Positions 1 through 16,731 of a DNA stretch of 21,010 nucleotides are shown in pieces. Source of the stretch: a virus; the UHGV virus genome UHGV-1822439; one strand, 5' to 3'. Position numbers and translations under genes: made by a program. Under the pieces are notes generated by a model, which was not told where the DNA came from, searched no databases, and saw nothing but the letters and a program-made list of their open reading frames with translations. Numbering within the stretch: position 1 is the first letter of the stretch; every line of letters begins with the position of its first letter.

Positions 1-392
1 AGTGCCTCCATCATCAACGCATTATTTTGTAGTCTAGCCTTCTGGCCCTGTTACGCAACATCTCATCACCCCATTACCCTGAAATGATTAATAAAATTCT
101 GTCTAAATTGAATACAAAAAGCAAAATGCTTTTCCGTATACAAACCGTGTGAAGTGTTAAATAGCGTCTATCATTATCAGAATTATCTGATCATATGACG
201 TGGCTTTTTTGCGATCGGATAGCAACAAAAATTGATAAAAATAACGGGATCTCAATGATTACGCACAACTTCAATACCCTGGACTTACTCACCAGTCCTG
301 TCTGGAATGATTAACGACATGAATAATCATTTGTAAAACAGCATGTTATGTTATCTTTGTTTTGGATTTTTGATATTTGGTCACTATTTGGT

Positions 393-745: not shown

Positions 746-2542
746 TTAAACAATCTCGCTCAATTGCGCATCGGTTAATGCTTTGTGCCATACCCTGAAA
801 TTTCTAATGTGTCCAAAAAGATGTCGCTCCCCTGATGTTGTTTGACCGCCGAAACGGAATATTGCTGCGTTAGATATATATCTCCATGTTGTTTTTGTTT
901 CGCTTGATATGCGTCCGTTACTGACACAACATGCATCATAGGTGCTTTTAACCCTCATGCCGATAATCATTTTTTGCATTGATGCGTTTTCGTTAACGCG
1001 CCTGTTTGCTCCTCCAATATCGCAATAAGGAAATCCGTCGTATTCTGTCGACGACCCAAAAGCAAGAATTATAGCCGCGCCAGTCTGATGGCCGCCTGTG
1101 TCAAAAACACGCGGCGCTGAACTCGGCGTTTTTTCCCAATTTTTATGTACCTCGCAAAGAATAGTGAATGGTGCATTATAAAGGTTGTTCTTTATCGGGG
1201 CCGTGGCTATGTCACTTGCACGCGTTGCCGCCGCCGTCCCCGTAACAATAAAAGATGATGCGCCTGTACCAGCCTCAATCTGTGGAGTGGTTACATCGAG
1301 ATAATCCCCTGATGCAACCATCTGCCCTGTATCTGGAGAATACTGGACAAAACCACCAACCGTATTTTCTGTTGTATCTGCTTTTAATGTAGCCTCAAAA
1401 AATATCCAGCCAGTTGCATCATCCTTAACAGACCTTGCTGTAACACGGCTTGTCTGACCTGTCTTGCTAATTATGCGGGTGGTAAGGTTAAGGTTTGCTG
1501 TTCCTATTGATGTCCTTACCTCCCCATCATAATGTTCAAATAAAATACGAACGGCGATATTATCAACTTCACTTTTTACCCGACAGGATATAGTTACATA
1601 CTTTTCGTCCCCTGAAGTATCAACCCCTCCGGTACTCGAATACAGTCCGATAATGGTATGCGCTTTACTTGTACCAACAATCGAATCCTGTACGACAAAC
1701 CGGCCATAATTAAACCCGAAACTATCTGTGCCTGTTTCTGTAACGTCCAGTGAAGTTGACTTATTCCACTTCGAAGGGTCTGCACTGTTCTGGAAGAAGT
1801 TCGTTCTTTGCCCCTCAATAAGCAGGCCATCACGTTCAAATCGTGGCTCGTCAATGGCAGCCTCTGTCAGCACACCAGATTTATTAATGTAAGTTGCTTT
1901 TGATGCGCGTTTAAATTTAACGATCTTGTCACCTGGTACTGTTATTTCTTCTTCACCAATAACAATTTTTTTATAGGAAGGAGAAAAACCAGTAATCATA
2001 TCGAGAGAATCGTTAAACGGTATCCATACATCCGGCAGCGGCTGCAAAACATACGCGTAAGGCTGAGCCGTCTGATTGGCGTATTCGTGGGCCTCGTCTC
2101 TGTATGCCTTAGCTGAATCGGCGGCGCTTGTTGCTGTTGTTGCTGCGTTGGTTGCAGTGGTAGCTGATTCTGATGCTAATTTTGAGGCTGAAATCACATC
2201 TTTGTTGTCGCTAAAAAATTCGACGGCGTCAGCTATTTCTGATTCCTTGCCCTGATAGTAACGTAGTGTTTCGGCAACATCCTGAGCAAGACCATCTACA
2301 GAGATCGAATCTGAAAGCAGGATGCTAAATTTAGTCCCAGCCGGAATAGCCGGACTTGCCGCCGGAGTTACCGACAAACTTGTTGCGCTTTTTACCTCTG
2401 TGATTGAAAAAATTTGCACCGGATCGCTAATGGCAATAAGAGTGCACCCAACTCTGATCAGAGATAATGCGGCGTTGAATTCAGTCCCCGTTCCGGTAAC
2501 TGTTTTTCCGCTAACGGCTATCGTGCCTGTTGTGTAAATCAT
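746..2542 (-). CDS. Tail fiber / receptor-binding protein (598 aa) with C-terminal laminin-G/concanavalin-like lectin domain
   Basis: Large ORF after J and the two small post-J genes; Thr/Ala/Ser-rich shaft-like segment (SESATTATNAATTATSAADSAKA); C-terminal ~200 aa looks like a LamG/ConA-type beta-sandwich (call from reading only). SD GGAG 8 nt before ATG. Confidence 0.7.
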   Translation of the reverse strand: MIYTTGTIAVSGKTVTGTGTEFNAALSLIRVGCTLIAISDPVQIFSITEVKSATSLSVTPAASPAIPAGTKFSILLSDSISVDGLAQDVAETLRYYQGKESEIADAVEFFSDNKDVISASKLASESATTATNAATTATSAADSAKAYRDEAHEYANQTAQPYAYVLQPLPDVWIPFNDSLDMITGFSPSYKKIVIGEEEITVPGDKIVKFKRASKATYINKSGVLTEAAIDEPRFERDGLLIEGQRTNFFQNSADPSKWNKSTSLDVTETGTDSFGFNYGRFVVQDSIVGTSKAHTIIGLYSSTGGVDTSGDEKYVTISCRVKSEVDNIAVRILFEHYDGEVRTSIGTANLNLTTRIISKTGQTSRVTARSVKDDATGWIFFEATLKADTTENTVGGFVQYSPDTGQMVASGDYLDVTTPQIEAGTGASSFIVTGTAAATRASDIATAPIKNNLYNAPFTILCEVHKNWEKTPSSAPRVFDTGGHQTGAAIILAFGSSTEYDGFPYCDIGGANRRVNENASMQKMIIGMRVKSTYDACCVSNGRISSETKTTWRYISNAAIFRFGGQTTSGERHLFGHIRNFRVWHKALTDAQLSEIV

Positions 2543-2582
2543 CGCAATGACTCCATTATGTTAATTAACCTGGTAATTTTAC

Positions 2583-2623
2583 CATTTTGTGATCTGTGTT
2601 ACATTCCTGACCTATACAAAATG
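2583..2623. promoter_or_regulatory. Junction inverted-repeat element, site A
   Basis: CATTTTGTGATCTGTGT at 2583-2599 and TATACAAAATG at 2613-2623; TTTTGTGATCTGTGT is identical to site B (14768-14782). Lies between the divergent tail fiber (-) and lipoprotein (+) genes. Confidence 0.5.
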
Positions 2624-2701
2624 TATTTATTGATTTATATCAATGTTGAGAAAACGATGTTTATGGATACTACAACCGACGGAACAATGGAGGATAAGAC
2701 A

Positions 2702-2941
2702 ATGAAAGGCTTTAAAAATATCGCTATAGCTGCAATGGTCGCTGGTATGGTTGGTTGTGCTGATATGCCGAAACGTGAATGCACGGCAATTTATCAGGCT
2801 GGCGGTAATGAATATGCGGTTGCAGTCTTCGGTGTCGCGGATGTTGGCGGTCATAAAATGGTTAAGGCCGGGTATCCGTTTAACTTCCAATGGGTAAGCG
2901 TTGACCACTTCAAGAAAACGGATTGCCCGGAACTGAATTAA
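2702..2941 (+). CDS. Small lipoprotein (79 aa), antisense moron next to the tail fiber gene
   Basis: Perfect SD GGAGGA (2689-2694), 7 nt before ATG at 2702. N-terminus MKGFKNIAIAAMVAGMVG-C is a signal peptide with lipobox (MVGC); mature part ~60 aa with three further Cys. The ORF-track N-terminal extension from 2558 has no SD. Confidence 0.6.
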   Translation: MKGFKNIAIAAMVAGMVGCADMPKRECTAIYQAGGNEYAVAVFGVADVGGHKMVKAGYPFNFQWVSVDHFKKTDCPELN

Positions 2942-3537
2942 TCATAGGCGTCGGTTTTAATGGCGGTGATAGCGTTCCCGTGATTAATGTAACCGTAAAT
3001 CTGTTGCAAGCTACCAACCATCTTCCCGCGAATTCGTGTAGTGCTGCCGTTGTAGTATGCCTCTGTATATATTGTCGCAGAACCCATACCTACAACGGCC
3101 CCTAATATCTGAGGCACTACCGCATAAGATCCTGATAATGTCTGGTCGATATAAATTCCACCACTTGATCCGGCTGTCCCCACCGTAACAATGTCTGTCA
3201 ATATTCTTGATTCGTTTGTCAATACCAGTTCACCGGAAGCGTTCCATATAGCCATACCCCACTTCGGACGCGATTGCGGGAAGATACTGAATATATACGC
3301 GTAACCGTTTCCTGGTGGAATCACTATGGTAGACGATGAATTGCGATAGGCTACACCAGTAGCGGTATCGTCTGTGTTTTTTATGAATACCATTACAGGC
3401 TTCCCATTGGGGACGGCTATTGTTTGCTGTTGGCTTGAATTGAGAGCAACCCGTGAATAAAGGCACATAGGTGTCGAATCTGGAGTTACGAAAATATTGC
3501 CATTACTTAAACGTAAATAAGCGCCGAAAGTAGCCAT
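2938..3537 (-). CDS. Tail-associated hypothetical protein (199 aa), paralog of the upstream small gene
   Basis: ATG at 3537 directly abuts the upstream stop (TAAATG, 3540-3535). N-terminus MATFGAYLRLSNGN resembles MDTFGVATWDANGN of the upstream gene. Its 3' end converges on and overlaps the lipoprotein gene stop. Confidence 0.5.
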   Translation of the reverse strand: MATFGAYLRLSNGNIFVTPDSTPMCLYSRVALNSSQQQTIAVPNGKPVMVFIKNTDDTATGVAYRNSSSTIVIPPGNGYAYIFSIFPQSRPKWGMAIWNASGELVLTNESRILTDIVTVGTAGSSGGIYIDQTLSGSYAVVPQILGAVVGMGSATIYTEAYYNGSTTRIRGKMVGSLQQIYGYINHGNAITAIKTDAYD

Positions 3538-3849
3538 TTATGCGTTCTCCGTAAAAATAACCAGTTCACATTGCGATGCGGGCCATATATTAGCGCCCAC
3601 CGTATCCCCTGCTGAGGAAATGGAAACAGTACCGCCGGAAATACTGATCTTTCTACGCGTTGATGATGTTGTGCCATAATCAAGCGTCATGGCATAAGAT
3701 AATTTACATCCTGTAGGAACGGTAAAATTATATGTGCCTGACACTTGCCCGGAAGACAAGGAAATATAGCCAACCACGACGGATGGCTTGATGCCGTAGT
3801 TATTAGCGTTGCCGTTGGCGTCCCATGTTGCCACGCCGAAAGTATCCAT
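3538..3849 (-). CDS. Tail-associated hypothetical protein (103 aa)
   Basis: ORF 3538..3906 trimmed to ATG at 3849 (MDTFGVATWDANGNANNYG...), preceded by SD GGAGGTG; the longer ORF-track form would overlap the J stop and the post-J hairpin. Confidence 0.5.
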   Translation of the reverse strand: MDTFGVATWDANGNANNYGIKPSVVVGYISLSSGQVSGTYNFTVPTGCKLSYAMTLDYGTTSSTRRKISISGGTVSISSAGDTVGANIWPASQCELVIFTENA

Positions 3850-3860
3850 AGTTACACCTC

Positions 3861-3893
3861 CATAATAAAACTGAGGCCGAACAAGTCGGCCTC
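3861..3893 (-). terminator. Hairpin/attenuator immediately after J
   Basis: Stem GAGGCCGA (3873-3880) / TCGGCCTC (3886-3893), loop ACAAG; minus strand continues AGTTTTATTATGGAGG, i.e. U-rich tract then the SD of the next gene. Confidence 0.4.
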
Positions 3894-3899
3894 TTAATT

Positions 3900-6800
3900 C
3901 TACCATGATCCGGTAATTCGCCCAATCTGGACGCGTAACACGCCATTACCATCTTTTACTGAGATAGTTGTGTTCGTCCATTTCATTGCTCCTTCACCGC
4001 TTACTGATCCGTAGTTTTCGAATGTACCGGATTTATCAAGTTTCCAGCCTGTGCTGCCGGAAACATAGTTATTTGATTGGATGTAAGAACCTATTTTCGC
4101 GTTAGTGATTGATGCGTCCTTAATAAACGCTTCACGTACATACATTGCGCCGCCAGTGACATAGAAAGGCGTTGTATATGTGCCGTTTGCGGCGGTCATT
4201 AACACGAAGCGATCAACGAGGAAAATACACTGCGATTGGACATTAGTCCCGCTACCAGTAAGGCCGAGCGACATGCCGGTAGCATATTTAACGCCTCTGC
4301 TGTCTGTCGCGATCTTAATAGAGTATGATGCATCGACATTCCCCTTAAAGTCCGTTAACGCTTTCGATGTCGTCTCTATGGCTGTTGTGTTCCCGTCAAT
4401 AGTTACTTTTAACTGGTCAATTTTGGTTGATAATGCCTCGTCAGTCGTTGTCATGGCCTGTGACCATTCCGTGATACTTGAGTTTACATCGTCGAAAGAT
4501 GCCGATATTTGAACAAATTTTTCAGCACTTGATGCCTCGTGAGTTGCGAGCGCCGTTGATATATCTGTTATTTTTGCTGAAATGTTTTCATTAATATTGG
4601 CTTCAAGTGATGCTATAGCCTCCGCGCGGGCCTGGGTTTCGTCTGCTATTGCTGTGTCGATCCTTGCTATTTCCGCTTTTGTTTTTGTCTGGCCTTTCCT
4701 GTACTTCGCCTCAATAACGGTGCTCATCTTGCTTTGCGCTATTGAGTTGTTGATAAGTGCAATCGAGGCGTTTTGCAGACTTGCTTTTGCCTGATCTATT
4801 TCGTTGCTGTTTTTATCAACCTCATTTTCAACAAGACCAAGCTCCGCACTGATTCCTGATATTGCCTGAGCGCGGGCGCTTGATTCGTCAGCGATAGCTT
4901 GATCGAGACGAGAAACGCTCGCATCAGTTTTGTTTTCCAGGCTGCTGATACTGGCGTTAACGTTGCTTATAGCTTCCGTTCTCGCCTGCGTTTCGGTTGC
5001 GATTGCTTTGTCTACGCGGGCTATTTCTCCTTTGATGTTTGAGTCTATCGTATTTATTTCGGCTGTGATGGTTTCCAGTGATTCCGCTGTCGCTTTTTTC
5101 TCCTCTGCGATAACGTTGTCGATGCGGTCAATCTGTGCCTTTGTTTCGTTGCGACCTTTCTTATATTGAGCGGTAAGAGTAACCCGCGTGTTAGTTTGAG
5201 CAAGCGAGTTATTGATCAGAGCAAGCGAAGCGTTTTGTAAACTTGCTTTTGCCTGTGCCAGTTCGTTGTTAACGTTTTCGTTTGATACCTCTAATGAGTC
5301 TATTCTTACCTCATGTTTGCCTATTTCATCGGCGTTTTCTTCGACTTTTTTATAAAGGTCTTCGGTGTCTTTTTTAAGTGTATCTGTGTCAGCTTTAAGA
5401 TCCTCTGTAGCTATTTTAAGGTCTTCGGTAGCTCCTTCTACAATATCAGTGCGCTCACCAAGATCTTTAATGTCGCTAATCATCTCCTTGAATTGCTCTG
5501 ATTCCATTACATCCTTTGTAACGTAATCAGTGATTTCGTCAAAATCCTCTGTTGGCTTACCTGATGCCTCGACGAAATCAGACACACCAAAAGCATTACG
5601 AGTGCGCACATAAACGTAATAAGTATGGCCCGTATTCATGCCGCCGAACGTCCACTGATACCCGCGCCCGGTAAACTGTGCCGACGTGGTTATTTTTGCC
5701 GGATCTGTGATCTGATTTTCCCCTGCATAGTAGAATTCATATGACGTATCGGTAGTAAGCGTGGTTTTGCTTATCGGGTACACGGTCGCCTGAAATACGC
5801 CTGGAACCCAATTTACGCCAACTGGCGCGGCTGGAGCACCAATAACAAGATCAACAATGCTTTCAGCGCCTTTCATGCCAGTATCGTTTCTTCCGCGAAC
5901 GCCTAACGAATACGCGCCAGCGTCAATACCATAAAAATCATAACTGTATTTCGTTGTTTCGTAGCTTTTAACCACCGCACCATCAGTATTGTATATGCGG
6001 ATCTCGAATGTCATGCGATGCGTGGTTGTCTGTGTTTCCCATGTAGCTCGGCATTGAACTGTTTCAGATCCGATGTTTACCACTTTCAGGTTTTCAATGT
6101 TCGGGACACGGAAGTGATTAAGCGTGTCGTTGTTGATTTCAAATATCGCGCCTTCATCGACTACCGCTTGTTTGTTCGGGTCATGTTGCGCTGCTTCGAT
6201 GGTATACACGCTATTATTTTCGGTTTCGGCTACACTGGTGATCCGGCATAAAACGGGTTTTTCCGCTTCGGTGGATACAGCAAATACAGTACCGTTCCGA
6301 ATCCATGCCGGGGCCGCCGCTAGTGTGATTTCGTTTCCGTTTACACCAGTAATCTGATGTTTTTTAAATTTGCCGTCGCTGTCGAGTAAGCTGATGGTGT
6401 CGCCTGCTGTGATATAGTCGCTGTCAACCTTATCGACCGTTATCACGTTTCCATTGTTCGCCACGATACGCCCACCTAAACGCGCACCTGCGCGGTTATT
6501 GTCGAGGATTTCGACTATATCCCCTGGCGTAAAGTGAATCGCGTCACGTGCCATTTTAAACGTGAATTTTGACGGCTCGCGTTTTGCTGTTTCTATCAGC
6601 CATTTGCCCGCGCGGTACGCTTGCCCGCGTGACGTACAGCCGAACGCCTCCATCGTGGTTTCGTTGTAACCATCGCGGGCGATTAGCTCATCATCTGCTA
6701 CATACTCTTTTGACTGCTCCCACCCGTTTTCCGGGTCAGTCCAGGATACGATCACGGCGTTGTAGCATTCCGCACGGGCGATACTCGAACGAGTGAACGC

Positions 6801-7952
6801 GCCATCAACGACGTTTGCATTCGTAATGGTGGCGATTGGATCTTGCGGTGCATCAATCATTACGGTAAGACGTTGCCCGTCCCATAACGCGATGCCACGG
6901 AACATCCCGGCGATATTGTCCAGCAAATCGCGGGCGCTCATTTGCTCTGTTATGTACGCATTAAGCGTCACGCGAGGCTCAAGGCCACCGTAACCATCAT
7001 CGACCAACTGGTCGCAGTATTGGGAAAGTGTGTATAATGCGCCGTCGTCAACGTCGATATAACCAGCATGGCGGGCAAGGCCGAAACGCTCGTTTTTAAC
7101 CAGGTAACGAAAGATCCACGCAGGGTTATTAGTGTAAGCCTGTTTAAAGCCGCCAAGCCATAAACCGGAATAAGTGCGCGTTTCCGGGTCGTAGTTATCA
7201 GGCACGTCAACAATAAGCCCACGCAGGTGATAAGTGCGTGTAGGTGTGTCAGTATACTGATCGTGATCAATTACCGCGCCTGCTACAGCAGTGTGAGGAT
7301 AAGACAAATTATCGTCGATTATTTCGCTGTAGCTACTCCACCGCGTATCATTCTGCAATAGATCACCTGTGCTATCAGCGGTTACGCGGCGAACGCGAAT
7401 ATCAAACGGCTTTTCATCTGGCGCATCAATAATATGCGCTTCAAGGTATTCTCCGCTGATTTTACCTGGACCTATTTGCACGGCCTTAATAGACGACCAT
7501 GTTGAGGATGAGGACGGTTTAACGTCGATCGCCATAATGACAGATGTTTCTTTCTGGTTTGATTGGCTATCGCTTTCCACCAGTGAATCCACACCAATAT
7601 TTAACCGGACTCGCGTCACGTTCGGATCTGATACGGTCCTTACCAGCGGCGTGTCGTGTTTCACCTGTGCGTTAACCATTACCGTGGATTCGATGGCATT
7701 AAAACCGTTAATCGGTGATTGATCTAACGTACCATTACGCCACGCCACGCTAACGCCTGGGATGCTGGTATTACCGTTCGCGTCAGTTACAGGCGTGTCA
7801 TTAAGCATTACGCTATTTAATGGCGCACTGGTATTGACAGGGCCATAAATCGGGCCTTCCGAAATAATATCCAGCACACGATAAAACTGTTTGTGATAAA
7901 GGTTATCATTTATTAATGTTGGTGTTTTTGCTTTGCCGCCGCCGCTACTCAT
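3900..7952 (-). CDS. J: Host specificity protein J (tail tip / central tail fiber), 1350 aa
   Basis: Shares N-terminal motifs with lambda J as I recall it (ISEGPI.GPV, YHLRG, NAY.T, FGCTSRGQA.RAG.WLI); SD AGGAG before ATG at 7952. C-terminal third is a long repetitive coiled-coil unlike lambda J. Confidence 0.9.
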   Translation of the reverse strand: MSSGGGKAKTPTLINDNLYHKQFYRVLDIISEGPIYGPVNTSAPLNSVMLNDTPVTDANGNTSIPGVSVAWRNGTLDQSPINGFNAIESTVMVNAQVKHDTPLVRTVSDPNVTRVRLNIGVDSLVESDSQSNQKETSVIMAIDVKPSSSSTWSSIKAVQIGPGKISGEYLEAHIIDAPDEKPFDIRVRRVTADSTGDLLQNDTRWSSYSEIIDDNLSYPHTAVAGAVIDHDQYTDTPTRTYHLRGLIVDVPDNYDPETRTYSGLWLGGFKQAYTNNPAWIFRYLVKNERFGLARHAGYIDVDDGALYTLSQYCDQLVDDGYGGLEPRVTLNAYITEQMSARDLLDNIAGMFRGIALWDGQRLTVMIDAPQDPIATITNANVVDGAFTRSSIARAECYNAVIVSWTDPENGWEQSKEYVADDELIARDGYNETTMEAFGCTSRGQAYRAGKWLIETAKREPSKFTFKMARDAIHFTPGDIVEILDNNRAGARLGGRIVANNGNVITVDKVDSDYITAGDTISLLDSDGKFKKHQITGVNGNEITLAAAPAWIRNGTVFAVSTEAEKPVLCRITSVAETENNSVYTIEAAQHDPNKQAVVDEGAIFEINNDTLNHFRVPNIENLKVVNIGSETVQCRATWETQTTTHRMTFEIRIYNTDGAVVKSYETTKYSYDFYGIDAGAYSLGVRGRNDTGMKGAESIVDLVIGAPAAPVGVNWVPGVFQATVYPISKTTLTTDTSYEFYYAGENQITDPAKITTSAQFTGRGYQWTFGGMNTGHTYYVYVRTRNAFGVSDFVEASGKPTEDFDEITDYVTKDVMESEQFKEMISDIKDLGERTDIVEGATEDLKIATEDLKADTDTLKKDTEDLYKKVEENADEIGKHEVRIDSLEVSNENVNNELAQAKASLQNASLALINNSLAQTNTRVTLTAQYKKGRNETKAQIDRIDNVIAEEKKATAESLETITAEINTIDSNIKGEIARVDKAIATETQARTEAISNVNASISSLENKTDASVSRLDQAIADESSARAQAISGISAELGLVENEVDKNSNEIDQAKASLQNASIALINNSIAQSKMSTVIEAKYRKGQTKTKAEIARIDTAIADETQARAEAIASLEANINENISAKITDISTALATHEASSAEKFVQISASFDDVNSSITEWSQAMTTTDEALSTKIDQLKVTIDGNTTAIETTSKALTDFKGNVDASYSIKIATDSRGVKYATGMSLGLTGSGTNVQSQCIFLVDRFVLMTAANGTYTTPFYVTGGAMYVREAFIKDASITNAKIGSYIQSNNYVSGSTGWKLDKSGTFENYGSVSGEGAMKWTNTTISVKDGNGVLRVQIGRITGSW
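4616..5300 (-). repeat. Internal duplicated coiled-coil units within J
   Basis: About 165-nt units at ~4681-4850 and ~5140-5300 (protein ELAQAKASLQNASLALINNSLAQ... vs EIDQAKASLQNASIALINNSIAQ...), plus ~60-nt related units at ~4616-4670, ~4858-4915, ~4970-5030 (R.D.AIA.E..AR..AI). Confidence 0.7.
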
Positions 7953-9891: not shown

Positions 9892-9930
9892 CATTTTGTG
9901 ATATGCGTCACGCTAAATCACACCAAAATG
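9892..9930. promoter_or_regulatory. Junction inverted-repeat element, site C
   Basis: CATTTTGTGAT (9892-9902) and ATCACAccAAAATG (9917-9930) form an imperfect inverted repeat, 14 nt upstream of the L start on the minus strand and just before the plus-strand cassette. Confidence 0.5.
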
Positions 9931-9932
9931 GA

Positions 9933-9961
9933 TTGTTCATGGTTTTTACAATATGTATATT
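9933..9961 (+). promoter_or_regulatory. Candidate sigma70 promoter for the L/M-junction cassette
   Basis: TTGTTC (9933-9938), 17-nt spacer, TATATT (9956-9961). Weak -35; by eye only. Confidence 0.3.
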
Positions 9962-10007: not shown

Positions 10008-10196
10008 ATGACTGAAAAGCCATGGAAGTTGACGGTATTCATGACAGACGGTAGGGAAAAGGTTATCGCCCTGTATGACGACGAGGGGGAAGCATTGGTT
10101 GACGCGCTTTTACTTGCTGAGGATGACCGCCTTTTGGGATACCAGATCGAACCTGTCAAATATGAGGCTAACAAAAATGAAAAAATACAGTCTTGA
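10008..10196 (+). CDS. Small acidic protein (62 aa), first gene of the L/M-junction cassette
   Basis: SD GGAGG (9997-10001) 6 nt before ATG 10008. MTEKPWKLTVFMTDGREKVIALYDDEGEALVDALLLAEDD...PVKYEAN; paralogous to the N-terminus of the next gene. An alternative start at ATG 9990 is possible. Confidence 0.55.
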   Translation: MTEKPWKLTVFMTDGREKVIALYDDEGEALVDALLLAEDDRLLGYQIEPVKYEANKNEKIQS

Positions 10197-10524
10197 TGTG
10201 TGGTTAAGTGGTAGCAAGGAGTGTTTCGGATTATTTGATAGCGAAGAAGTAGCCCTGGAAGAAGGCAGGATTCTTGAATGTAGTTTAGGCCATCCAGTGA
10301 AATATGCTGCTAATCCGGTACAGATAGTTGATGAGGTGGAAGATATGAACCCGAAAGATATTAATGTTAACTTCAATGTTAATTTTGCAGACTCTATGGA
10401 TCAGTCTTGCCCTGGTGAAATACACGCAAAAGGTTTCCCGGCTGACGATCCAGAAGCAAAACGCGAATACGAAAAAGCTGCGAAAGACTTCTGCATGGAT
10501 AATCTTGCAGCATTCGATAAATAA
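10177..10524 (+). CDS. Acidic protein (115 aa), tandem paralog of the preceding gene with a C-terminal extension
   Basis: ATG 10177 overlaps the preceding gene by 20 nt. N-terminus SLDVWLSGSKECFGLFDSEEVAL...GHPVKYAAN aligns with ...LTVFMTDGREKVIALYDDEGEAL...GYQIEPVKYEAN; strongly acidic. A GTG at 10198 is an alternative start. Confidence 0.55.
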   Translation: MKKYSLDVWLSGSKECFGLFDSEEVALEEGRILECSLGHPVKYAANPVQIVDEVEDMNPKDINVNFNVNFADSMDQSCPGEIHAKGFPADDPEAKREYEKAAKDFCMDNLAAFDK

Positions 10525-12120: not shown

Positions 12121-12291
12121 ATGAAAAATCCGGCAAATAAAAGCAACGTAAAACGCATGGCATGGGTGCTAAAATATATGGATAGTAAAGGGGATACATA
12201 TACATGCCCATTTTTTAGGTGTACTGACGCGGTATTTGCCAGAAGTGTACACGGAGGGAAAATTGAGAGAGGATATACAAGATTTGAGTAA
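12121..12291 (+). CDS. Small basic protein (56 aa), hypothetical
   Basis: SD GGAGG (12108-12112) 8 nt before ATG 12121; MKNPANKSNVKRMAWVLKYMDSKGDTYTCPFFRCTDAVFARSVHGGKIERGYTRFE. Confidence 0.45.
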   Translation: MKNPANKSNVKRMAWVLKYMDSKGDTYTCPFFRCTDAVFARSVHGGKIERGYTRFE

Positions 12292-14766: not shown

Positions 14767-14830
14767 CTTTTGTGATCTGTGTATCTATTTTATACAAAAT
14801 GTCTTTACTATAACGACTCCATTTTGTATA
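14767..14830. promoter_or_regulatory. Junction inverted-repeat element, site B
   Basis: CTTTTGTGATCTGTGT (14767-14782), TATACAAAATG (14791-14801), and its exact inverted copy CATTTTGTATA (14820-14830). Starts 14 nt upstream of the tape measure start and overlaps the candidate plus-strand promoter. Confidence 0.55.
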
Positions 14831-14832: not shown

Positions 14833-14909
14833 GAGACTAAAGGAAAGGGATAGAGCAAAGGGGTTTGAAAGGACCGGATAAACCGGAGGAAGCAAAAGAG
14901 GATAAGAAA

Positions 14910-14999
14910 ATGAAAAACGTAAACTATCGTCCCAACGAACATGAACGCTATGCGGACTTCATAGAAGAAATGTTAAAAGCACTTAAAAACAAAAATTAA
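14910..14999 (+). CDS. Tiny ORF (29 aa), possible leader peptide or small protein
   Basis: SD AAGAGGA about 7 nt before ATG 14910; MKNVNYRPNEHERYADFIEEMLKALKNKN; stop 12 nt before the next start. Confidence 0.3.
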   Translation: MKNVNYRPNEHERYADFIEEMLKALKNKN

Positions 15000-15011: not shown

Positions 15012-15509
15012 ATGAAACGGCTAGTAAAAGTCGCGGTAGCTGCGGTCATGGCAATATTCGCGGTCAATGCAAATGCAAGTAATGAAGTCAGCAAGATGTG
15101 CGACGCTATTTATCCAGCCTACGAAAAAGCATATACAATGGCAAATGTAAACTTTTTTTCAATTGGTAGGCACGGCGTTAACTGGGAGTATTTCATCTTA
15201 AATAAAGATAGCAGGACCAAAAAAGGTGACGCTGAAATGATAAAAGCGCACGGTGAAAGTTTCGCTTTCGTGATGGCTGCTGCTGAAAACAAACAAAATG
15301 ATAATGAATTTAAAAACTTTGTCGCTGGACTTGCCATCATGGCTGCTGAACGGGCGATAAAAGATCACGACAATAACGCTTATGCCGCTGCCGACGGGAT
15401 GGCATTAGATAGGGTAAGAATTGACTTCAAAAACATGTGCGTCAAAGAAGGCGCTAACATGTATAAAAAAGTAATAGATAAACACCACGAATATTATATA
15501 GGTTATTAA
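15012..15509 (+). CDS. Secreted/periplasmic protein of unknown function (165 aa), moron
   Basis: SD GAGG 6 nt before ATG 15012; signal peptide MKRLVKVAVAAVMAIFAVNANA with Ala-x-Ala cleavage site; two Cys in the mature part; Ala/Lys/Asn-rich, likely helical. Confidence 0.6.
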   Translation: MKRLVKVAVAAVMAIFAVNANASNEVSKMCDAIYPAYEKAYTMANVNFFSIGRHGVNWEYFILNKDSRTKKGDAEMIKAHGESFAFVMAAAENKQNDNEFKNFVAGLAIMAAERAIKDHDNNAYAAADGMALDRVRIDFKNMCVKEGANMYKKVIDKHHEYYIGY

Positions 15510-15539: not shown

Positions 15540-16200
15540 GCTCGCGATTTTTCATTCTTTCCAGTACCTCCATAGCCTCCCTCATTCCATCGTCATAAGC
15601 CTTTTTGTCAAGCAATACATTTGGTCGTTTTTGTTTGTTTCTTGCTTCTTGCGGCATTTTGGCGCGTACTGCGGCCCTATATCCGGTCATTGTCATGCCC
15701 CATGCTTCTGATTCAGATAACCCCAGGTGGGCAACGGCAGAATAAACGAAATCAAGTACATCAAATGTCGGCTTGTACTCACCTTCCTGGATCTCGCTTG
15801 TATTTTCTTCCGGCCCGTCACCGATTAAACCGTGGTACATGCAATGCTGCGCCAGCGTGATAACGTCACTGGTAGGCATCAGTCCTGGTCTTAGTCGTAA
15901 CTTGCCGGAAGGAGTAAACCTACATTCGCCTAATAGCGTGCCTATTTCGTCGTCTGAGCAACATTTCAGGATGTGCATGGACGTTTGCACCATTTCACCA
16001 TAACACCGCGCCATAATGCGATTGCGAAGGTCTGGATCCGCTGGCAATCGTGATGGATATTTGCCACCGTGTATGGTTGCGAAGTATTCGACCAGTTCGC
16101 TGTCACTGCCGATTTTAGCCATTGCAGCGAAGCAGGGATTAAACACGTACCGCCTGCCGTCTACCACCGCCGCAAATTGTCCCGTTCGAACATGGATCAT
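15523..16200 (-). CDS. Tail assembly chaperone (G/T-like), 225 aa
   Basis: Assigned by position between tail tube and tape measure. ORF-track start 16209 is a GTG inside the SD AAGGTGA; ATG at 16200 (MIHVRTGQ...) is better placed. Single continuous ORF, no second-frame product seen. Confidence 0.45.
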   Translation of the reverse strand: MIHVRTGQFAAVVDGRRYVFNPCFAAMAKIGSDSELVEYFATIHGGKYPSRLPADPDLRNRIMARCYGEMVQTSMHILKCCSDDEIGTLLGECRFTPSGKLRLRPGLMPTSDVITLAQHCMYHGLIGDGPEENTSEIQEGEYKPTFDVLDFVYSAVAHLGLSESEAWGMTMTGYRAAVRAKMPQEARNKQKRPNVLLDKKAYDDGMREAMEVLERMKNREQEKAR

Positions 16201-16212
16201 AGCTGTCACCTT

Positions 16213-16236
16213 AAAAGAAAGGGGCCAGATGGCCCC
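16213..16236 (-). terminator. Hairpin/partial terminator after the major tail gene
   Basis: Palindrome GGGGCCA-GA-TGGCCCC (16221-16236); on the minus strand it is followed by TTTCTTTT (16220-16213), then the chaperone SD. Confidence 0.5.
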
Positions 16237-16254
16237 GATTGTTAATATTGATTA

Positions 16255-16731
16255 TTATGCTGCTGGGATGTCGCCAACCGTCACCTTGCCAGCACTTGAA
16301 CACTCAATGGACCAGGTGGAAACGTCGTCGTTAGGGTCTTCTTCTTTAAAGGAAGTGCAAAGAAACGGACCTTCAGTCACATCAGCCGGGGAAACAATTT
16401 TAAGCCAAACATATGGTTGCGATCCGGTTGTTTCGCCTGGGTTAATAACGTGGCGTTTAAGTGCCTTCTGATTATGAATTTCTTCAGTACGGGATACGCC
16501 GTCACCTGAGAAAGAAACAGATTTGTAAGTGACAAGTGATTCTTTGGTGTAGTCTGCTGATTTATCAGCGGTGGCGTCTGCGGTTTCCCATTCTACGGAA
16601 AGCGTTTTGCCGCGCATCATGCCTAACGCTTTATAAGAGCCGTCTTCAGGTTTCGCGTTAGGACAAGCGATAGCGTAGAATACAGCAACGTCGCGGCCTA
16701 AAAACGCGCCTTTTTCGCAAGTCTGAGACAT
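16255..16731 (-). CDS. Major tail (tube) protein (158 aa)
   Basis: Position upstream of chaperone and tape measure; size and beta-rich composition typical of small siphovirus tube proteins; followed by attenuator hairpin. Confidence 0.6.
   Translation of the reverse strand: MSQTCEKGAFLGRDVAVFYAIACPNAKPEDGSYKALGMMRGKTLSVEWETADATADKSADYTKESLVTYKSVSFSGDGVSRTEEIHNQKALKRHVINPGETTGSQPYVWLKIVSPADVTEGPFLCTSFKEEDPNDDVSTWSIECSSAGKVTVGDIPAA

Follow-up and report, generated by a model that had tools for sequence, protein, structure and literature searches.

A cor-family exclusion lipoprotein gene beside the tail tip module of an mEp021-like Escherichia coli prophage

Background

The cor cassette is a textbook example of superinfection exclusion at the level of the receptor. 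It was described as a set of three genes, for an outer membrane protein, a membrane-associated protein, and Cor, located downstream of the tail tip gene J in phages T1, HK022, N15, ES18, and phi80 (PMC13164509, after Wietzorrek et al. 2006). The full cassette was reported only from FhuA-dependent phages, namely these five and 10 BASEL phages, with Cor-like proteins also known from BtuB-dependent Markadamsvirinae phages and from a single Tempevirinae species (PMC13164509). Loci downstream of gpJ have been proposed to encode receptor-binding proteins together with their cognate exclusion proteins (PMC8594841).

The molecular mechanism of Cor itself has been described as not yet elucidated (bioRxiv 10.64898/2026.03.26.714494). 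According to the same preprint and PMC13164509, Cor and Llp of phage T5 share a fold, and the side of FhuA on which Cor docks is the periplasmic one. The preprint cites Cor of mEp167 as abolishing the functions of FhuA, and Cor of KanT1 has been modelled with an FhuA from which the first ~70 residues were removed. In the crystal structure of T5 Llp, the lipoprotein binds FhuA at its periplasmic face and plug, and binding folds the FhuA loops EL7 and EL8 inward, so that the phage receptor-binding protein cannot bind; the authors expected Cor to act like Llp and noted the disulphide shared by the two proteins (PMC9586334). A further small lipoprotein, the periplasmic Rtp45 of phage Rtp, is encoded in the receptor-binding locus downstream of gpJ and blocks the phage's own receptor, but this receptor is LptD and the mechanism is steric rather than allosteric (PMC12685063, PMC8594841).

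Lipoprotein genes have also been studied in the mEpimmI group, with a prophage set that included Ecol_244 and UMNK88. They were placed within the structural gene cluster and divided into four sequence types, of which type A (mEp021) excludes OmpA-dependent phages and type C (mEp010) excludes LamB-dependent phages and lambda; no Cor type is named among them (PMC11893012). Here, we describe a cor gene in a prophage of this group.

Source Prophage and Gene Neighbourhood

The window, i.e., the whole stretch of 21,010 nucleotides of virus genome UHGV-1822439 that was analysed, is, as judged by sequence comparison, the tail region of an mEp021-like (mEpimmI) temperate siphophage prophage beside zntB. 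It shows ~85% nucleotide identity to the structural region of mEp013, mEp515, mEp044, mEp554, mEp010, mEp021, and MagusPhagus. Prophages of E. coli M15 and of strain Ecol_244, both of which adjoin zntB/ynaN, share 99.8-100% and 92-96% identity with it, respectively. Homology to free phage genomes begins only at about window position 305-330, so the first ~300 bases are bacterial flank.

The surrounding large genes are all located on the minus strand, and cor is a single antisense gene among them, on the plus strand. Head to head with it lies the gene of the 598-aa side (lateral) tail fibre (746..2542, minus strand; PHROG 1419, E=3.5e-222; NCBIfam GTA_spike_fiber domain), which agrees with an earlier note on this DNA that had placed a lipoprotein gene antisense and directly beside the fibre gene. 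In the M15 prophage, this fibre gene is interrupted by IS903B.

On its other side, the stop codon of cor overlaps the stop codon of a convergent gene (2938..3537, minus strand) encoding a 199-aa cor-cassette protein (PHROG 425, E=1.3e-49), a homologue of the "membrane associated protein" T1 gp31, N15 gp23, and HK022 p25. A tblastn search with this protein returned 347 phage records, led by SLUR29 with 63% identity, and its homologue adjoins cor in SLUR29, T1, phi80, and HK542. The next gene (3538..3849, minus strand) encodes the 103-aa cor-cassette "outer membrane protein", a PHROG 557 member homologous to T1 gp32, N15 gp22, and HK022 p24. This 312-nt version was called by PGAP in the identical prophage; the longest ORF form extends to 3906 (122 aa), and PHROG 557 matches residues 23-120 of it (E=2.3e-28). 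The tail tip protein J (1350 aa; 3900..7952, minus strand) follows, with NCBIfam lambda_TipJ matching residues 1-998. It has no lambda-like C-terminal receptor-binding extension and ends where the phi80/HK022-type J ends.

The cor Gene and Its Signal Peptide

According to the ORF, its translation, and family profiles, cor (2702..2941, plus strand) encodes a 79-aa prelipoprotein, MKGFKNIAIAAMVAGMVGCADMPKRECTAIYQAGGNEYAVAVFGVADVGGHKMVKAGYPFNFQWVSVDHFKKTDCPELN, with a mature form of 61 aa from Cys19. The start codon ATG is located at 2702 and the stop codon TAA at 2939-2941 of the plus strand, and a Shine-Dalgarno sequence GGAGG (2689..2693, plus strand), as read from the sequence, lies 8 nt 5' of the ATG. 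The earlier note had given the lipoprotein the span 2543-2941; the gene does lie within it, but starts only at 2702, and 2543-2701 is intergenic. An alternative in-frame ATG at 2558 would give a 127-aa reading, which was chosen by PGAP in strain M15. Because Cor family members are all 71-80 aa long and align from Met1-Lys2, the 79-aa start is regarded as correct.

The signal peptide (2702..2758, plus strand) begins with the basic n-region MKGFK, has a hydrophobic core, and ends in the lipobox M16-V17-G18-C19 (codons 2747-2758). The N-terminus of the precursor reads MKGFKNIAIAAMVAGMVGC and continues as ADMPK.... The predicted lipidation residue is Cys19, in the context MKGFKNIAIAAMVAGMVG-C19-A. 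The +2 residue, which by the Lol sorting rule sets the membrane destination of lipoproteins, is Ala, not Asp, so outer-membrane sorting is predicted.

The 79-aa lipoprotein with signal peptide, lipobox, and good Shine-Dalgarno sequence was thus present as previously noted, with the correction that the residue at lipobox position -3 is an atypical Met. Leu is near-invariant at this position across the Cor family alignment and is also found in the three closest prophage copies. The PROSITE lipoprotein pattern allows Met at -3, and this Met could affect processing of Cor. Among four prophage cor copies, dN/dS is 0.06-0.32, with mainly synonymous differences; the ORF is intact and under purifying selection. 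Together with the matches to curated family profiles, this selection places the ORF beyond chance.

Assignment to the Cor Family

Profile and sequence comparisons clearly assign the lipoprotein gene to cor, as an intact and genuine member of the family. The NCBIfam equivalog NF047972 (lamb_exclu_cor, "phage exclusion lipoprotein Cor") scored 54.1 bits, above its cut-off of 31, with E=1.1e-14 and a match spanning positions 8-76 of the 78 in the profile; the match to PHROG 1119 ("Cor superinfection exclusion protein") had E=1.2e-22. The RefSeq/PGAP name of the gene is likewise "phage exclusion lipoprotein Cor", given in E. coli prophages that are 100% and 96% nucleotide-identical. An exclusion lipoprotein of the Llp/Cor type had been proposed before, along with a comparison to family profiles. 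That comparison has now been run and put the protein above the cut-off of the Cor profile; NF047972, PHROG 1119, and the RefSeq name all identify it as a Cor family member. The gene is therefore of an already known kind, annotated as cor in public E. coli genomes.

A tblastn search with the window Cor matched 175 phage records at identities reaching ~67%; most of them come from T1-like Drexlerviridae and Dhillonvirus. Identity is 59% to SLUR29 Cor, 49% to T1 Cor, and 34-35% to phi80/HK542 Cor (34% to phi80). In a family alignment of 20 sequences, including the Cor proteins of T1, phi80, HK542, and SLUR29, the invariant residues M1, C19, C27, G57, and C75 are all kept in the window protein, as are the near-invariant G18, A56, P59, F60, and F70. 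The (K/R)AGYPF core of the family reads KAGYPF here. The window Cor is therefore like the Cor proteins of T1, phi80, N15, HK022, and mEp167 in length, lipobox Cys, Cys pair, and KAGYPF core, and differs from them in the Met at -3 and in its host, which is a non-lambdoid mEpimmI prophage rather than a lambdoid or T1-like phage.

Among protein collections, a word-indexed search with Cor found eight near-identical proteins only, and an exhaustive search of representative proteins gave 21 matches, 13 of them Cor-sized. Long matches in multiple stretches (at least 410 aa) are probably spurious and fall on the Ala/Gly-rich signal-peptide part. Neither Pfam nor PADLOC assigned the lipoprotein to a family or system, and Rfam gave nothing at E<=1 within 2000-4200. 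Homology to a housekeeping lipoprotein was looked for and not found; all homologues are phage or prophage Cor, with no match to a bacterial family.

Predicted Fold and Proposed Mechanism

The AF2 model of the window Cor, built from an input alignment without the T1, phi80, HK542, and SLUR29 sequences, is all-beta, with a mean pLDDT of 81.6 and values >86 across the mature domain. Among 350,542 PDB chains, the top Foldseek match was 8a60_B, i.e., Llp with FhuA (prob 1.00, TM 0.46/0.57, rmsd 2.8 Å over 51 columns, 25% identity); its E value of 0.054 is weak for a small domain, and Tudor/chromo-like small barrels score near it. The Cys9-Cys57 spacing of mature Cor matches the Cys11-Cys58 disulphide of Llp (PMC9586334), so that the disulphides are equivalently placed.

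T5 Llp is also comparable in being a small outer-membrane lipoprotein encoded beside receptor-recognition genes. There are also differences. First, there is no sequence similarity between the two proteins by phmmer, which gave no hit for the window Cor at E<=10 against all PDB chain sequences, including 8A60 chain B. Second, family scans found no match to a pb5-type gene among the genes flanking cor in the window, where cor is neighboured by genes of PHROG 425 and PHROG 557 and by J.

The best explanation of these data, and in our estimate a very probable one, is that cor is the superinfection-exclusion lipoprotein of a cor cassette carried by an mEp021-like (mEpimmI) temperate siphophage beside zntB in E. 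coli. The mechanism proposed below draws on homology to Cor of T1, phi80, N15, HK022, and mEp167 and on the fold likeness to T5 Llp. Its starting point, the 79-aa precursor with a lipoprotein signal peptide and lipobox Cys, is read from the sequence. Following established lipoprotein biogenesis, Sec would export the precursor, which would receive its lipid at Cys19 and be cut by Lsp; the lipoprotein would then be transferred by Lol to the outer membrane. There, by analogy with Llp, the 61-aa mature domain with its putative Cys27-Cys75 disulphide may bind the periplasmic face/plug of the TonB-dependent transporter FhuA. FhuA with Cor bound would be locked, its surface loops refusing phage receptor-binding proteins, and a lysogen, or an infected cell together with its debris, would no longer adsorb, or no longer be infected by, the phage itself and other FhuA-dependent phages. 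Masking of the receptor at the cell surface, as had been suggested earlier, is not what the Llp analogy points to; the block would be allosteric and exerted from the periplasmic face (PMC9586334).

The cor Cassette and the Predicted Receptor

The exchanged receptor/exclusion cassette (2645..4107) contains the 3' end of J, two small genes, and cor. When compared with mEp021, mEp013, and MagusPhagus, the DNA is homologous over the fibre N-terminus and the intergenic stretch as far as 2630-2644; the homology is then lost until 4091-4108, inside J. What is replaced relative to these LamB- and OmpA-type relatives is cor together with the two small genes and ~70 codons at the end of J.

The corresponding region was found in T1-like phages. 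Window positions 2752-4112 align in one stretch to the cor-gp58-gp59-J end of SLUR29 (63.6% over 1405 nt), a T1-like phage in which J is likewise followed by gp59, gp58, and a convergent cor. SLUR29, T1, phi80, and HK542 have in common the series J, ~100-aa gene, ~200-aa gene, and cor, and in the window J and cor are separated by the PHROG 557 and PHROG 425 genes. The cor gene is convergent in T1, SLUR29, and the window, and co-directional in phi80 and HK542. Compared with the known Cor systems, the locus shares the series of J end, ~100-aa gene, and ~200-aa gene, convergent with cor as in T1; unlike in these systems, cor lies antisense between the J-distal genes and the side fibre, downstream of a junction element specific to the group. 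The last 300 aa of J align end-to-end with J of HK140, HK542, phi80, and mEp234, whereas J of mEp013 and mEp021 matches to about residue 260-277 of these 300 and then continues into an extension of its own.

The set of J, two small genes, and cor is also present in the UMNK88, MFDS1019527, and Ecol_244 prophages beside three different side fibres; the fibres found next to the same cor are a 598-aa head-spike-type, an 841-aa S74-peptidase, and a 790-aa protein. In both T1 and SLUR29, kilobases separate cor from the lateral fibre gene, whereas the J-distal pair is directly beside it. The homology breakpoints, the SLUR29 block, the J C-terminus, and the fibre swaps show that cor travels with the J-tip module; it was inherited as one block with the J end and the two small genes, and not with the side fibre. 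The side fibre, to which the earlier note had coupled the lipoprotein, is thus replaced as its partner by the J tip and the two small genes on the convergent side.

Lipoprotein genes of types A (mEp021 gp81) and C (mEp010 gp116, mEp013_104, and MagusPhagus CDS0021) occupy the same antisense slot between J and fibre in their phages, and the ~105 nt upstream are nearly identical to those of the window. Their sequences are unrelated (PHROGs 4281 and 12984 versus 1119 for the window Cor); the match of type A to the window Cor is weak and confined to the signal-peptide region, and no nucleotide homology of type A/C relatives was found across the cor ORF. Unlike the window prophage, the type A and C phages have a long J with its own C-terminal extension and are without the two small J-distal genes. 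The suggestion that the phage lipoprotein blocks the phage's own receptor gains support from the Cor homology, and from the exclusion of phages with the matching receptor by the lipoproteins in this slot of sister phages (PMC11893012).

Because cor was inherited with the J-tip module, and because the cassette marks FhuA-dependent phages, we predict that the prophage uses FhuA as its terminal receptor. Both the exclusion function of Cor and its FhuA specificity are what we infer from homology and context. The window Cor matched the Cor proteins of the BASEL phages PeterMerian, JakobBernoulli, and LeonhardEuler at 49-61% identity by tblastn, and FhuA is listed as the terminal receptor of all three (PMC8594841 supplementary table).

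It is also conceivable, though in our judgement unlikely, that this Cor-family lipoprotein is aimed at another outer-membrane transporter, such as BtuB or another TonB-dependent receptor, which would then be the prophage's own receptor. The closest cassette comes from the Tempevirinae phage SLUR29, whose subfamily includes BtuB users; however, the BtuB-linked Tempevirinae are without the ~100-aa "outer membrane protein" gene, and the window has both small genes. Cor-like proteins do occur in BtuB-dependent Markadamsvirinae and one Tempevirinae species (PMC13164509), but the matched BASEL homologues with known receptors all use FhuA. Likewise, the window protein has only 49% and 34% identity to the experimentally studied Cor of T1 and phi80, respectively, but the C-terminus of J is aligned end-to-end with that of FhuA-dependent phi80/HK022-type phages. 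FhuA is accordingly kept as the predicted receptor.

Upstream Region and Junction Element

The divergent intergenic region (2543..2701) comprises 159 nt from the side-fibre start to the cor start. Positions 2540-2645 (~105 nt) are almost invariant in seven relatives with three different lipoprotein types. This stretch contains a bipartite junction element with box 1, TTTTGTGATCTGTGT (2585-2599, plus strand), and box 2, TATACAAAATGT (2613-2624, plus strand). Three copies of TTTTGTGATNTGNGT are present in the window, all on the plus strand, at 2585, 9894, and 14768, versus 0.10 expected; the shared junction element of the earlier note is therefore real. Each copy has the start codon of a structural gene on the minus strand (side fibre, L-like protein, or tape measure) at a distance of 14-40 nt and heads an antisense gene island on the plus strand. 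Matching junctions in mEp013 and mEp021 also carry copies of the element. In mEp021 bases 1-50000, box 1 had no copy at <=1 mismatch, and with two mismatches allowed only the L-junction copy was found. The left boundary of the cassette falls just after the junction element.

A consensus scan of 2200-3300 gave no promoter-like and no terminator-like sites at the threshold of the tool, which at that threshold agrees with the earlier statement that no sigma-70 promoter is evident upstream of cor. By eye only, a sub-threshold extended -10 candidate (TTTACC-16 nt-TGtTACATT) was seen at ~2578-2605. No -35/-10 pair conserved in position across the three element copies was seen by eye on either strand, since the spacing between box 1 and box 2 varies (8, 13, and 36 nt). 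A simple phase-dependent activator site is also disfavoured by this variable spacing. Within box 1 there is a CRP-like TGTGA-N6-TTACA, but this is a resemblance only. The overlap of the cor stop with the convergent stop leaves no room for a terminator, and cor does not have, in the scan of 2200-3300, the flanking promoter and terminator of its own by which a moron, a transcription unit inserted as an autonomous element into a late operon, is recognized.

Two other identities of the element were considered and rejected. An RNA hairpin is not indicated, as folding is weak (-7.7 and -8.5 kcal/mol, with z values of -1.4 and -2.3), and a phage repressor operator at box 1 is not indicated either, the sole look-alike in the mEp021 immunity region having two mismatches and no repeats. 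Candidate roles for the element are those of a promoter or activator site serving the antisense islands, a signal of the late operon, and an anchor for recombination.

These observations bear on the possibility that cor is a silent or decaying passenger, unexpressed or unprocessed and without phenotype, which we consider quite improbable. Such a state might be read from the scan of 2200-3300, with neither consensus promoter nor terminator, but the ORF is intact, has a strong Shine-Dalgarno sequence and a dN/dS of 0.06-0.32, and the DNA upstream of it shows strong conservation throughout the phage group. The Leu-to-Met change at -3 is specific to the window copy and the identical M15 copy, yet it is a residue that the PROSITE pattern accepts. 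IS903B in the M15 fibre gene suggests a decaying prophage; on the other hand, the lipoproteins of sister phages are functional when expressed, though from a plasmid promoter (PMC11893012).

A role of the lipoprotein in protection against the divergent side tail fibre, or in blocking the receptor of this fibre, is very improbable, as the head-to-head arrangement around a common, highly conserved 159-nt control region is outweighed by the presence of this region and the fibre N-terminus in relatives with unrelated lipoproteins, by the break of nucleotide homology just upstream of cor and its return inside J, by the three fibres (598, 841, and 790 aa) beside the same cor, and by the position of T1 and SLUR29 cor far from the lateral fibre gene and next to the J-distal pair.

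A broader interpretation can also be offered, which we hold as tentative and rather doubtful. The gap between J and fibre in mEpimmI phages would swap a receptor module and its matched lipoprotein as one cassette, and the conserved element would be a regulatory or recombination signal. The pairs may be Cor/FhuA (here), type A/OmpA, and type C/LamB, all behind an invariant control region. The bipartite element TTTTGTGATNTGNGT ... TNTACAANATGT may represent a previously undescribed regulatory or recombination signal, and it may govern genes that are antisense in the late operon, perhaps including lysogenic-conversion genes such as cor. Should this interpretation be true, the mEpimmI group would gain its first FhuA-type member in this prophage.

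Implications

As the gene is already named in RefSeq and the exclusion system is well described, the discovery value of the locus is small; it represents a known kind of gene in a slightly new genomic home. What is added is an in silico prediction of FhuA for an mEpimmI prophage, a group for which the receptors tested are OmpA and LamB (PMC11893012). Lysogens carrying this cor would be expected to resist T1, T5, and phi80-type phages, and possibly albomycin and colicin M. The comparison also clearly illustrates that a receptor module travels with the exclusion lipoprotein matched to it from one unrelated siphophage lineage to another (T1-like, lambdoid, and mEpimmI), which is useful for predicting receptors and cross-exclusion when therapeutic phages are chosen.

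The lipoprotein gene and its slot

The 79-aa exclusion lipoprotein gene cor (2702-2941, + strand) lies head-to-head with the side-fibre gene. An ATG at 2558 is in frame with cor and the stretch 2558-2701 is free of stops, which gives the 127-aa reading annotated by PGAP in the prophage of E. coli M15; gene calls from metagenomes include versions of 106 aa. These longer readings were rejected as annotation artefacts, because members of the Cor family range from 71 to 80 aa. Codon 16 (2747-2749), at lipobox position -3, encodes Met in the window and Leu in the Ecol_244, UMNK88, and MFDS1019527 prophage copies; Leu is nearly invariant at this position across the Cor family. The Met could alter lipoprotein processing of the window Cor. 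At its 3' end, the stop of cor overlaps that of the convergent 199-aa gene by 4 nt (2938-2941), no terminator was predicted on either strand at this overlap, and transcription of the two genes must either collide or read through mutually.

In phage mEp021, a free relative, the slot held by cor in the window has gp80 (1980-2915 of the mEp021 region L001) as its second gene, which is co-directional with and follows the lipoprotein gene. The 311-aa product belongs to PHROG 1265 ("membrane protein") and is annotated as a virion structural protein. Unlike mEp021, the window and the type-C phages, which carry another, unrelated lipoprotein, lack a gp80 gene.

Side fibre, tail tip protein, and prophage end

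The side-fibre gene (746-2542, - strand) is a mosaic. Its N-terminal ~110 codons (2214-2542) are common to mEpimmI relatives. Elsewhere in the gene, the parts 746-1230 and 1793-2086 resemble fibres of SLUR29, a T1-like phage, and 768-2086 includes further matches to phages of the ev243/2G7b type. In the M15 prophage, which is otherwise identical to the window, IS903B is inserted in the 5' end of this gene (2479-2487), where the two aligned M15 pieces overlap by 9 bp; the window side fibre is without IS903B.

The tail tip protein gene J contains internal direct repeats of a 74-nt and a 34-nt family (4733-5451), and residues ~817-1180 of J give weak SMC-like coiled-coil matches. Across this phage group, J includes a repetitive coiled-coil segment whose length varies, as was likewise remarked in PMC11893012.

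Positions 1-~330 are bacterial flank on the ynaN side of zntB, the same as in M15 and Ecol_244. The match to the genome ends of free mEp phages begins at ~305-329, and a prophage end therefore lies within 1-~330.

Junction elements and antisense islands

A bipartite conserved element on the + strand, consisting of box 1 (TTTTGTGATNTGNGT) and box 2 (TNTACAANATGT), occurs three times in the window (2585-2624, 9894-9956, and 14768-14802; 0.1 copies expected), with 13, 36, and 8 nt between the boxes, respectively. Each copy marks a junction between the start of a minus-strand tail gene and the beginning of an antisense gene island on the + strand, and mEp013 and mEp021 keep the element at their equivalent junctions. 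A CRP-like TGTGA-N6-TTACA lies within box 1, and the two boxes are partially complementary to each other.

The stretch 2671-2707, which covers the cor 5'UTR, SD, and start, shares 76% identity over 37 nt with 14879-14915, the upstream region of a 29-aa ORF (14910-14999, + strand) at the tape-measure junction. A start context of similar form, GAGGA(T/A)AA..AAAATGAAA, recurs at 10164 and 12109; this likeness and these repeats thus indicate translation-start contexts common to the antisense islands. Four more antisense ORFs were located on the + strand within the tail gene cluster (10178-10524, 12121-12291, 15012-15509, and 16016-16471), one of which matched PHROG 38567 (unknown function), while the remaining ones had no family match. 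These further ORFs could be extra accessory or lysogenic-conversion genes.
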